From contig CAWDVE010000010.1 of NCBI GenBank assembly GCA_963805625.1, positions 1,568,001 through 1,632,000 of the forward strand: a DNA stretch of 64,000 nucleotides. The letters run 5' to 3'. Below are positions 4,016 through 58,236 of the stretch, in pieces. This DNA comes from an uncultured Candidatus Rokubacteria bacterium. Its GTDB lineage: Bacteria; Methylomirabilota; Methylomirabilia; Rokubacteriales; DASRDR01. Below the pieces are notes generated by a model. The model was given only the letters and a program-made list of their open reading frames with translations. It was not told where the DNA came from and ran no database searches. Numbering within the stretch: position 1 is the first letter of the stretch; each line of letters starts with the position of its first letter. Position numbers and translations under genes: made by a program.

Positions 4016-4606
4016 CTACGCCCGCCCCTGGTCGGGGCGATCGCCGCGCTCCGGATCCGGTGGCGAGCGCCGCCAGAGGCCCTGCGACGGCACGCGGAGC
4101 GCCCGGTTGAACTTGCTGGACGCGTTCTCCCACGCGATGACCGCCGTCAGCTCCACGAGGGCGTCGTCGTCGTAGAAGCGACGGAGGCGGTCGAAGAGCT
4201 CGTCCCCGACCTCGCGATCGCTGAGCGTCATGGCGTCGGCGTACTCGAGGGCTACGCGCTCCGCGGCGCCGTAGAGCGGGCTGGTCGCATAATCCGGCAA
4301 CGCCAGGATCTTCTCCTCCGGCACCCCGAGCGCGCTGCCCACGGCAGCATTGATGTCCTGTCAGAACTCGCAGCGGTTCAGGAATGCCACGCGCCGGTTG
4401 ATGAGAGCCTTGAGCTTCTCGTCGATCAGCCCCGAGGCGTCGATGCCCGTCCACATCCCGCGTGCGCCGCGAAAGATCGACGGCCGGCGCGCGTACACGA
4501 GGTGGTTCAGGAGAGGGGCGCCCCAGTGCCTCGCCTGAGCGGCCAGCACCTTCTCGGCGTAGTCGTCCCCCGCCTCGCCCGGCCGAACGCCTTCGATGCG
4601 GGCCAC
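4016..4606 (-). CDS. AhpD-like/carboxymuconolactone decarboxylase family selenoprotein (CxxU), about 196 aa with TGA read-through at 4363-4361
   Basis: ...RVAFLNRCEF-TGA-QDINAAVG... continues in frame into a typical AhpD-like C-terminus (ERVALEYADAMT, LVELTAVIAWEN..SKFN); GTG start at 4606; hairpin 11 nt after the TGA. Confidence 0.88.
4333..4363 (-). other. Sec codon plus candidate SECIS
   Basis: TGA caggacatcaa TGCTGCC-GTG-GGCAGCG. Confidence 0.72.
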
Positions 4607-4626
4607 CGCCCTGCCCTTCCCGGCGC

Positions 4627-5601
4627 CTAGTACTGCTTCTTGAGATCCATCCCGGTGTAGAGCGACGCGACCTGGTCGTAGCCGTTGAACATCAGTGTCT
4701 TCCGCCGCCGGAACTCGCCGATCCGCCGCTCGGTCGCCTGGCTCCAGCGGGGATGGTCGACGTTCGGGTTGACGTTCGAGTAGAACCCGTACTCGTTCGA
4801 CGCCGCCTTGTTCCAGCTGGTCTTCGGCTCGTCGGCGACGAGCCGGATTCGCACGAGAGACTTGGCGCTCTTGAACCCGTACTTCCAGGGCACCACGACG
4901 CGGACGGGGGCGCCGTTCTGGTTGGGAAGCACGTGCCCGTACATCCCGACCGTCAGGAGCGTCAACGGGTGCGTGGCCTCGTCGAGCCGGAGCCCCTCTA
5001 CATACGGCCAGTCGAGCGAGGAGCCGAAGAAGCTCGGCTTCGTGCCCGGCATCTGCTCGGGATCGACCAGGGTCTGGAACTCCACGTACTTGGCGGCGCC
5101 GGTGGGCTCGACCCGCTTGAGAAGCGCCGAGAGGGGGTACCCAATCCACGGGATGACCATCGACCAGCCCTCGACGCAGCGAAGGGCGTAGACGCGCTCC
5201 TCCAGAGGGGCCAGCCGCAGGATCTCGTCGATGTCGAAGGTCTTCGGCTTCTGGCAGAGACCGCCCACCTCCACCGTCCAGGGCCGGGGGCGGAGCGTGT
5301 GGGCGTTCAGGGCCGGATCGGATTTGTCGGTCCCGAACTCGTAGAAGTTGTTGTACGTCGTGGCGTTGTCCCAGGGCGTGGGCGGGTCGGTCACGCTCAC
5401 CGCCTGGTTTCGCGCCGCGGCCAGGGATTGGCCCTTCACCGCCGGCTTGAGGGCAGCTTCCGCCGGCGCGTCCGAGCCCCCCACCGTGGCGGCGGCAGCA
5501 GCGGCCGCACCGACCATGAAGGATCGCCGGTTCAGGTACACCCCCCGCGGCGTGATCTCCGACGGGGGCGGATCGTGCGGCCCCGGAATGCGGATCAGCA
5601 T
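4627..5601 (-). CDS. msrP: protein-methionine-sulfoxide reductase catalytic subunit MsrP
   Basis: SEITP, Tat [55 protein letters not shown]. Confidence 0.97.
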
Positions 5602-5609
5602 GGCTCCTC

Positions 5610-6797
5610 CTAGACTACGCCTCCCGCCCGCAGGCGGTCGTACTCGGCCCGCTCGAGTCCGAGCCGGCCGAGATAGATCTCTTCGTTGTCCGCCCCCACC
5701 TCGCGCACGCCGGCGTGCCGGATCGTCCCCGGCGTGCCTGTGAGGCGCGGCACGACCCCGGGCATGTGGACCGTCCCCAGACCCGGCTCCGGCACCGCCA
5801 CGATGTTCTCGCGGGCCTTCAGCTGCGGGTCCGCGAACAGGTCCCGCACCGAGTTCACCAGCGCGCACGGCACCTCGGCGGCATCGAGCGTGGACAGCGC
5901 ATCGGCGGCATCCCGCGCACCCACCCACGCCTGGACGAGCCCGTCCAGCTCGGCGCGCCCCGCGAGCCGGTCCCGCACCCCCGGAAACCGCGCGACCAGG
6001 TCCGGTGTTCCCATGGCCCGGGCCAGCCGGGCGAACATGCGGTCGTTGGTGCAGGCGACCGCCACCCAGCGGCCGTCCCGGCTCTCGTAGTGGTTGTGGG
6101 GCGCCGCGCTCTCGGCGGCCGAGCCGATGCGCTCCCGGACGTACCCGAGCGCCCCGAACACGGGGATCGCGTCGTCCAGTATCCGCACGATGGGCTCGTA
6201 GAGACCCAGGTCCACCACCTGCCCCTCGCCCGTCCGCTCGCGCGCTCTCAGCGCGATCATCGCCCCGAGCGCTCCCATGACCCCCGCCAGGTAGTCCGGC
6301 ACCGTCGGCGTCCCGGGGGTCACCGGAGGCCGGTCCGGGTAACCCGACAGATATGAGATGCCCCCGACCGCCGCCGCGATGCGTCCGAACCCCGGCCGCT
6401 CGCGGTACGGCCCCGTCTGGCCGAACGCCGAGATCCGGACCATCACGAGCCCAGGATTCTCGGCCCGCAGAGCCTCGTACCCGAGCCCCCAGCGCTCGAG
6501 GGTCCCCGGCCGGAAGTTCTCCGCGACCACGTCGACCCCCCGGCACAGCCGGCGGACCAGCGTCTGCCCGTCAGGATCCCGGAGGTTGCAGGTGATCGAC
6601 TTCTTGTTACGGGCATCGGAGAGCCACCAGAGCGACACGCCGTCGGCCTGGCGCCCGAGGCGCCGGAGGTCGTCCCCCACGCCGGGCTGCTCGACCTTGA
6701 TGACCTCGGCCCCGAACTCGCCGAGAAGCGTGGCGCACATCGGCGCCGCAATGAACGTGGCGAGGTCCAGGACGACGAGGCCGTCGAGCGCGCCCAC
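5610..6797 (-). CDS. CaiB/BaiF family (class III) CoA-transferase
   Basis: [35 protein letters not shown]. Confidence 0.93.
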
Positions 6798-56612: not shown

Positions 56613-56615
56613 GCT

Positions 56616-57464
56616 CTACGGCTCGACGGGTACGTCGTCGCGACCACCCCACTCGGTCCAGGACCCGTCGTAGACGGCGACGTCCGGCCGGCCGACGAGA
56701 TCGAGCCCGAGGGCGAGGACGCAGGCCGTCACCCCGGAGCCGCACGACGTCACGATGGGCCGGTCGAGATCGACACGGGCCGCCTCGAACACCCTGCGGA
56801 GGTCGTCCCGCGGGAGCAACGTCCCGTCCGGCCGGAAGAGCCGATCGTAGGGCACGTTCAGGCTCCCGGGGATGTGCCCCCCGCGGAGGCCGGGACGCGG
56901 TTCGGGCTCGGTCCCCGCGAAGCGGCCGGCCGATCGGGCGTCCACGACCTGCGCGAGCCCTGTCGTGAGGTTTCTGCGCACGCCATCGAGGTCGGTCACC
57001 AGCTCTGGATGGAGGCGCGGCGTGAAGTGGCGGCGCACCGGGCTCGGCTCTCCCGCCTCGACAGGCCGGCCCTCCTCCCGCCATCGTGGGAAGCCACCGT
57101 CGAGGATGGCCACGCGCTCGTGTCCAAACACGCGGAAGGTCCACCACACGCGCGCCGAGGCGGACAGGTACTTCCCGGCGTAGACGACCACCCGGTCACC
57201 ATCACCGATCCCCAGGGCACCCACCGCCTGACCGAATGTGACCGCATCGGGCAGCATGTGGGGGAGCCCTGACGTCCGATCGGAGATCGCGTCGATGTCG
57301 AAGTAGACGGCGCCGGGGACGTGGGCCTGGCCGAACTCCGACCGCGCGTCGCGCTTGAGGGTGGGCAGGTACCAGGTCGCGTCAACGACCCGGAGGCCCG
57401 CCTCGCCGAGGTGCTCGGCGAGCCACGCCGTGCTCACCAGCGGGCCAAAGCTCGCGTCCATCAT
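56616..57464 (-). CDS. sseA: 3-mercaptopyruvate sulfurtransferase (tandem rhodanese)
   Basis: LVSTAWL, HVPGA, DARS..RF, GHIPG, active site CGSGVTA, YDGSWTEW. Confidence 0.94.
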   Translation of the reverse strand: MMDASFGPLVSTAWLAEHLGEAGLRVVDATWYLPTLKRDARSEFGQAHVPGAVYFDIDAISDRTSGLPHMLPDAVTFGQAVGALGIGDGDRVVVYAGKYLSASARVWWTFRVFGHERVAILDGGFPRWREEGRPVEAGEPSPVRRHFTPRLHPELVTDLDGVRRNLTTGLAQVVDARSAGRFAGTEPEPRPGLRGGHIPGSLNVPYDRLFRPDGTLLPRDDLRRVFEAARVDLDRPIVTSCGSGVTACVLALGLDLVGRPDVAVYDGSWTEWGGRDDVPVEP

Positions 57465-57561
57465 GGTCTACGTTTCCCGGCACGACGGGTCACGGTTCGA
57501 TTATGGCACGCTGCGCGGGTGCACCGGGGTTCCCGCGAGGCCGACGCGGACAACGGCAGCC

Positions 57562-58236
57562 CTACTCGGCCGGCTCGGCGTGGAGCAGGCCTCCAAACAT
57601 CCGGCGACCCAGCTCGAACGCCTCGGCGAGAACGAGCCCCGCCCCGTCACCGTCCGGCGTGTCGCGGCGCCACTCCGCGAGCTCCTCTTCCGACCGGAAG
57701 AAGTTGAGGCGGGTTCAGAGGAAGCTCGAGAGCCGGTCGCCACCCCATCGGCTCCGCTCGACCCACGTGAGGCTTCCGGAGGGCGCCCGGCAGGGACCGG
57801 CCACCGGATCGACGTCGAAGACCAGTGGCGCACCGCTCCGGTGGCAGCGCGACCGGAGCGTCACCGGGCTCCCCACCATCGGCGCCACGCCGAGGGCGTC
57901 GATCGCACAGCACGCGTAGCGCGCCCGGCCACCAGGAAGCACCACCTCGAAGTCGTTCCGCTCGGCGGTGAACGGGTACGCGAGCGTGACCTGGTCTCCG
58001 TCCAGCCCGATCAGGTCCGCGGCATCAAGCGCCGCCGCTCGCGCCCGGAGAGCTTCCGGCGTGAGTCCCGGGATGGCCCGCGACGCCGCCTCGAGGGCAA
58101 CCGGTCCGCCGGCCGCGACGAACTCCCGCCAGATGGCCCGGAGCAGCGGATCATCCCGTTGCGCCCGCCGAGCCGCCCACTCCCCCGCCCGCTCGGGCGT
58201 GAGGATCTCGGCAGCGGTCCGGATCTCGACTCTCAC
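57562..58236 (-). CDS. MerB-like (organomercurial lyase family) selenoprotein, about 224 aa with TGA read-through at 57717-57715
   Basis: AYPF, YACCAIDALG (C-x-x-D), SRC..SG, SSFL-TGA-TRLNFFRSEEELAEW...LAEAFELGRRMFG-stop; GTGA overlap with the anti-sigma stop. Confidence 0.86.
57684..57717 (-). other. Sec codon plus candidate SECIS
   Basis: TGA acccgcctcaa CTTCTTCC-GGTC-GGAAGAGG. Confidence 0.75.

Follow-up and report, generated by a model that had tools for sequence, protein, structure and literature searches.

Four predicted selenoprotein genes with canonical SECIS-type hairpins in a 64-kb stretch of a Candidatus Rokubacteria genome

In the model described for bacteria, the selenocysteine insertion sequence (SECIS) is a stem of 4-16 bp with a loop of 3-9 nt that starts with G followed by G or U and lies 16-37 nt from the UGA codon (PMC13188914, section 5 and Fig. 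2A legend). In the same inventory, AhpD-like, CMD-like and TlpA/redoxin selenoproteins as well as the MerB-like SaoL are already listed, and 63 predicted selenoprotein genes are cited for one Methylomirabilota metagenome-assembled genome (MAG) (PMC13188914). SaoL is described as a protein of the MerB fold that carries selenocysteine (Sec, U) at the position of MerB Cys159, about 50 residues before its end (bioRxiv 10.1101/2022.07.06.499078). Here we analyzed a stretch of 64,000 nucleotides, referred to as the window, from an uncultured Candidatus Rokubacteria bacterium (assembly GCA_963805625.1, contig CAWDVE010000010.1, positions 1,568,001 to 1,632,000 of the forward strand), in which four genes are predicted to read an in-frame TGA as Sec. 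Their features are as follows, in window positions.

4016..4606, minus strand: AhpD1, YciW-related predicted selenoprotein gene of the AhpD/CMD fold (196 aa, CxxU, U82, GTG start inferred)
4361..4363, minus strand: in-frame TGA of AhpD1 (predicted Sec)
4333..4349, minus strand: SECIS-type hairpin of AhpD1 (7 bp, loop GTG at +19; same register in 30/30 loci)
23363..23926, minus strand: AhpD2, second predicted selenoprotein gene of the AhpD/CMD fold (187 aa, CxxU, U86, start inferred)
23669..23671, minus strand: in-frame TGA of AhpD2 (predicted Sec)
23640..23657, minus strand: SECIS-type hairpin of AhpD2 (7 bp, loop CGGG at +19)
40880..42253, minus strand: gene for a fusion of a YVTN beta-propeller with a TlpA/redoxin domain (457 aa, UxxC, U353)
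41195..41197, minus strand: in-frame TGA of the propeller–TlpA fusion (predicted Sec)
41170..41182, minus strand: SECIS-type hairpin of the propeller–TlpA fusion (5 bp, loop GGC at +18)
57562..58236, minus strand: gene for a MerB-like lyase (224 aa; U174 at the position of the second catalytic Cys, with the first Cys and the Asp kept)
57715..57717, minus strand: in-frame TGA of the MerB-like gene (predicted Sec)
57684..57703, minus strand: SECIS-type hairpin of the MerB-like gene (8 bp, loop GGTC at +20)

A first-pass annotation of the window had proposed that these genes are four selenoproteins from three unrelated folds. All of its minus-strand TGAs, beginning at 4363, 23671, 41197 and 57717, were confirmed together with the 11 nt reported after each, and the frames stay open for a further 114, 101, 104 and 50 codons in AhpD1, AhpD2, the TlpA fusion and the MerB-like gene, respectively. 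The hairpins were found with the stem lengths and loops given above, starting at +12 or +13 after the TGA, and CAAT or CAAC (CAAY) occupies +9 to +12 in 4/4 genes, making the fourth codon after the TGA Asn in each. When the TGA was read as U, the Pfam domains CMD (twice), Redoxin/AhpC-TSA and MerB (PF03243) each spanned it. The count of four genes stands, but not their independence: AhpD1 and AhpD2 are 39% identical and match the same NCBIfam model, and since they are paralogues the window provides three independent cases rather than four.

The genome (7.27 Mb, 28 contigs, about 70% GC) contains selA, selB, selC and selD. The genes for tRNA-Sec (selC, 76.9 bits), selA and selB are clustered on contig C21, and selD, with an in-frame TGA of its own, lies on contig C10. 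The TGA was found at the same codon in 30/30 AhpD1 loci (our own included) and in 18 of 20 loci related to AhpD2, the remaining two being one frameshifted locus and one distant Cys form. Matches to the propeller–TlpA fusion were obtained in 15 of 150 other genomes; these belong to one family, and every match has the TGA. The MerB-like gene matched 71 of the 151 genomes of the order, with one TGA in 75 of the 80 listed matches; these tallies include two unpublished genomes (G055 and G083), and the codon position was checked in 29 matched and 10 hand-picked loci. Cys occupies the U position in 86 of the 89 MerB homologues that span the site, and TGA alternates with Cys among the homologues of the window genes. 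Sec recoding of all four TGAs is thus supported by the presence of the machinery and by the retention of the TGA in relatives. Since each TGA coincides with a catalytic Cys position and recurs in relatives, sequence comparison makes it very likely that the four genes encode selenoproteins.

It is very improbable that the TGAs are instead genuine stops, the product of nonsense mutation or assembly error, or the sign of a general reassignment. Such a reading could draw on the ATG that directly follows the TGA of AhpD2, on frameshifts present elsewhere in the assembly and on the role of TGA as the main stop codon. However, the same catalytic codon is TGA in dozens of assemblies, the hairpins track the TGA and not the Cys codon, and the Sec machinery is complete. 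Since TGA terminates 2,976 of the 4,428 long genes with high scores, the codon is not generally reassigned. One contig spans the TGA at 41197 and shows no codon difference among the rows listed, which was not relied on. RNA contigs were sparse, too few to speak for expression.

As the first-pass annotation had anticipated, gene callers truncate these genes, and database homologues end or start at the TGA sites. Of 120 database homologues of the propeller–TlpA fusion, 19 end just before the TGA, and among the 96 database matches of AhpD2, 12 end and 54 start at the site. Since database calls end at the TGA, as do 104 of the top 120 matches of the MerB-like protein, soil metagenome surveys of merB or redox genes likely miss or mis-score such genes.

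The first-pass annotation had also suspected a large selenoproteome, and we found at least 44 predicted Sec genes (the four of the window and 40 others), a lower bound that rests on selection by hand. The search combined a hexamer gene model and a read-through screen with NCBIfam models on 80 candidates, 35 of which were also compared with Pfam; self-BLAST alone was too noisy for this purpose. From the first list of 80 hand-picked candidates, 60 were examined; 35 of them passed and 25, having no domain across a Cys-like TGA, were discarded. A second list of 20 yielded five accepted and 15 rejected. A family model spans the TGA in 42 of the 44 genes, and two were accepted on the UxxC motif alone.

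The hairpins of this set were compared with those following true stops and Cys codons, using 39 Sec genes picked without hairpin information. A stem of at least 5 bp was present in 38/39 Sec genes, compared with 193/800 stops and 178/800 Cys codons. A loop with G[G/T] starting at +17 to +22 was found in 29/39 Sec genes, 24/800 stops and 30/800 Cys codons, although this range was fixed after the data had been seen. Across all 44 Sec genes the stem mostly starts at +12 to +15, and the best hairpin has a G[G/T] loop, starting at +17 to +27, in 40/44, a count that includes four of the last five accepted genes, which were found by this very feature. The stem sequences vary freely between Sec genes, and no sequence element beyond the canonical SECIS was found in the 44. 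The first-pass annotation likened the 11-nt spacing to the rule known for E. coli fdhF.

All four window genes have the stem, the G[G/U] loop and the distance of a canonical SECIS, which supports the proposal that the elements lie just 3' of the UGA; an Rfam scan of the window gave no match. The AhpD2 hairpin shows a compensatory change from a T-A to a G-C pair in other genomes. The 13-nt TlpA hairpin is identical in 43/43 TGA loci (counted after removal of three duplicates; the loci are kin, with 26 distinct contexts) and was found in 2/49 Cys loci. In the MerB-like gene, the hairpin core is kept in 28/29 TGA loci, the remaining one being cut by a contig end. The three Cys-coded MerB orthologues keep the Asn, two of them as CAAC, but the hairpin is disrupted in all three.

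The first-pass annotation had gone further and proposed a lineage-specific SECIS that requires CAAY at the base of the stem. Within the window the pattern is striking, as 4/4 genes carry it while CAAY is rare elsewhere, following 13 of the 3,765 TGA codons called as stops and 164 of the 14,731 Cys codons, and the four genes make up half of the eight TGA-N8-CAAY sites with a SECIS-like hairpin in the genome. The genome-wide test nevertheless largely refutes the proposal: neither CAAY at +9 to +12, nor Asn at +4, nor CAAY just 5' of the stem occurs in any of the 40 other predicted Sec genes, including selD, though one SelB must read all of them. CAA is found at the site in three of the 40, each time encoding Cys-Lys, and loosely filtered read-through TGAs across the genome showed no CAA enrichment (CAAY in 1/185).

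Nor is the motif constant among Sec orthologues. It is broken in 20 of the 43 TlpA Sec loci, where CAAY is present in 23 and the hairpin in all 43 (nine loci have Gln and 11 have TAAY), and in five of the 29 MerB-like Sec loci, which have GAAC instead. Among 16 hand-picked distant AhpD-like loci, 13 have the TGA; seven of these 13 are without CAAY, and in six of the seven the loop still starts at +19. Conversely, CAAY also occurs in Cys-coded genes. It was found in 45 of 49 Cys-coded TlpA homologues, of which three have a SECIS-like hairpin; since these loci were retrieved with an Asn-containing seed, they show existence and not frequency. They do counter the view that Asn would be unusual directly behind the TlpA CxxC, as TlpA genes that encode Cys and share both the tetrapeptide and the Asn were readily retrieved. 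In Cys-type MerB, for which the search used no word seed, position +4 is most often Asn (48/86). We consider it highly improbable that CAAY is a required element.

We therefore favor, with a probability of roughly 90%, the reading that the four genes are ordinary selenoproteins made via a canonical SECIS, and that CAAY likely reflects a family-typical Asn four codons on and not a recoding signal. CAAY would arise from the Asn codon AAY placed after a C-ending codon, as preferred by a 70% GC genome; Asn is mostly encoded by AAC and Ile by ATC, and C is the main third base. By chance, some residue within six positions would be common to three unrelated genes with a probability of about 4%. The common Asn of the three unrelated window families is most likely a coincidence.

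Several observations, besides the late choice of the loop range and the Asn-containing seed, weigh against this reading. For Asn specifically, at its genome frequency, the chance of sharing would be far below 4%, which is why the family background, with Asn common in Cys-type MerB, matters. CAAY is not common after true stops (the 13 of 3,765 above), so the outcome that the first-pass annotation had named as telling against its own proposal, an equal frequency after ordinary TGA stops, did not occur. Every Sec form has Asn at +4 in AhpD1 (30/30), AhpD2 (18/18) and the MerB-like protein (29/29). Most Cys-type AhpD homologues have His at +4, and Asn is found there in 3 of 27 AhpD homologues spanning the site, none of which has Cys at the Sec position. 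Since Cys-type AhpD proteins mostly have His, a protein-level cause for the Asn is inferred in this family from other Sec paralogues and not from Cys forms.

Finally, the 40 other Sec genes show a weak A excess, at +10 (14/40 against a background of 17%) and at +12 (6/40 against 4%), together with few G at +10 (9/40 against 42%). This, and the A found at +11 in 43/43 TlpA Sec loci, would fit a spacer just 5' of the stem that is preferably unpaired and A-rich or G-poor, a weak and dispensable preference that adjusts how efficiently recoding occurs, with CAAY as one case of it. However, +11 is unbiased genome-wide (10/40 against 23%), the A excess could stem from the residues that follow UxxC, and in the TlpA Gln variants the A at +12 merely lengthens the stem. 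We regard such a spacer preference as unlikely, if less so than a required CAAY.

In the preferred reading of ordinary selenoproteins, SelB is predicted to recognize, together with its Sec-tRNA, the short stem whose G[G/U] loop lies 17-27 nt downstream of the UGA; SelB binding of such a hairpin is established for bacteria. Sec would be placed at the catalytic Cys, as CxxU in the two AhpD-fold proteins and as UxxC in the TlpA domain, and at the second metal-binding Cys of the MerB-like lyase. In the MerB-like protein, the positions of the first Cys (Cys96) and the Asp (Asp99) of the catalytic triad align with MerB of the PDB and are invariant, and U falls at the Cys159 position; this register, taken from sequence alignment, has an off-by-one ambiguity against the PDB protein, and the spacing is ungapped in the homologue alignment. 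The protein scores below the cut-offs of the MerB hidden Markov models NF033555 (45/200 bits) and PRK13239 (56/193 bits). Going by what is known of the families, the AhpD-fold proteins are likely thiol-type reductases or peroxidases, the propeller–TlpA fusion is likely a disulfide reductase with the propeller as a binding module, and the MerB-like protein is likely a metal-carbon lyase or a metal-binding protein with Cys, Asp and Sec as ligands.

AhpD1 is flanked by msrP-like and msrQ-like genes (window 3337-5601), which are common to 11-12 of 29 related loci, all of them its closest relatives, and the MerB-like gene has an anti-sigma-like gene and a rhodanese gene as neighbors. Since these neighbors are shared by the closest relatives only, they carry little information on function. 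The window holds one more CMD/AhpD-like gene, its third (48586-49026, plus strand), which has no in-frame TGA. In other genomes of the order, AhpD-like Sec paralogues were seen that have no first Cys of CxxU and have Arg at +4.

The families among the 40 further Sec genes include peroxiredoxins, TlpA, DsbA, glutaredoxins, rhodaneses, UGSC proteins, GrdA, GrdB, a PrdB-like protein, SelW, DsrE, MoeB, OsmC, FwdB, a CUAEP radical SAM protein, SelD and others. Against this number, four Sec genes in 64 kb point to slight clustering (a Poisson probability of 7e-4 for a single window, or 0.08 such windows expected among 113). Two candidates whose domains span a TGA at a non-Cys position, an amidase and an acyl-CoA dehydrogenase, were left out, and a formate-dehydrogenase-like match with a TGA on contig C11 proved to be a frameshifted Cys form. 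The formylmethanofuran dehydrogenase subunit B with a predicted Sec lies at C14:166569-167588 (371.7 bits, over the cut-off). Predicted selenoprotein genes grdA and grdB, of the glycine/sarcosine reductase type, stand close together at C10:1703427-1705308; with a PrdB-like gene on contig C17 and four UGSC genes, they would be unexpected if the organism is aerobic. The gene at C21:323909-324508 has a strong hairpin and encodes a protein of the DUF411 family with a predicted UxxC; DUF411 is unnamed in Table 1 of PMC13188914. Many candidates on contig C10 from about 1 to 140000 are AT-rich and atypical, which suggests an island or contamination (genome contamination 6.26%).

The best new leads are two candidate families outside the window, which also fall outside the usual redox folds. 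The first is a family I CoA-transferase subunit A (C10:753660-754259, minus strand, TGA at 753989), followed by subunit B. Its TGA stands at one codon in 14 of the 15 top loci, with TGC in the other, and is accompanied by a conserved hairpin with a GGC loop. The TGA may, however, mark a split gene, as a GTG follows it and solved relatives have Gly or Gln at this position. The second is a persulfide-dioxygenase-like hydrolase of the MBL fold (C19:55211-55867, plus strand), with the TGA at 55268, codon 20. The same codon is TGA in 20/20 loci, one of them from the unpublished genome G032, with no Cys allele among them. Two unrelated hairpin sequences, at +21 and +26, occur in different clades, a pattern that suggests SECIS turnover. 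Both families are absent from the 119-family 2026 inventory (Table 1, PMC13188914), and neither protein matches a seleno model in NCBIfam. No publication describing them was found among the search results listed, and the supplements of Deng et al. 2026 and of Haft and Tolstoy 2025 may list them. We tentatively suggest, at somewhat less than even odds, that Rokubacteria hold undescribed selenoprotein families, comprising the CoA-transferase subunit A, the MBL-fold hydrolase, the propeller–TlpA fusion and a SAO-independent MerB-like lyase with Sec at the metal site. If so, the MerB-like lyase could give soil Rokubacteria an organometal-cleaving activity that is hidden by truncation.

Taken together, the window very likely contains real selenoprotein genes with canonical SECIS elements and no new signature. 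The CAAY signature would have added to recoding biology but fails genome-wide; the lasting value lies in 44 SECIS examples gathered from a single genome, with Sec and Cys forms naturally paired, and in the two candidate families. Compared with the canonical model (PMC13188914), the elements share the in-frame hairpin 3' of the UGA with a G[G/U] loop start, while the spacing in this genome is narrower and the TlpA hairpin alone, at -5.6 kcal/mol, is weaker than the model limit of -7.5. Like the UxxC TlpA/redoxin selenoproteins (cd02966, PF08534; Table 1, PMC13188914), the window fusion has a thioredoxin fold and UxxC, but its TlpA domain is fused behind a YVTN beta-propeller. This architecture is not named in that table, no NCBIfam model scores over its cut-off for it, and a propeller was found in 0/49 loci of the Cys homologues of the TlpA domain.

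AhpD1 shares CxxU with the AhpD-like and CMD-like selenoproteins and passes the NCBIfam model NF053654 for YciW-related (seleno)proteins (334.9 bits, cut-off 310), whereas AhpD2, at 135 bits, remains below this cut-off as a more distant paralogue. The MerB-like protein shares with SaoL (NF040728) the MerB fold and a predicted U at the Cys159 position, but it reaches only 38.4 bits (cut-off 140) and has Leu before U in place of the CU dipeptide; it is predicted to be a different subfamily. No SAO-like gene was seen among the nearest neighbors of the MerB-like gene, the genome not having been searched with models of SAO, whose locus comprises nine genes. The large selenoproteome is real yet not new, as 63 genes have already been reported for a Methylomirabilota genome. 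That set was reportedly described by Deng et al. in 2026. Judged by what is cited of that MAG, it belongs to the same phylum and has a similarly large selenoproteome, next to the at least 44 genes found here.

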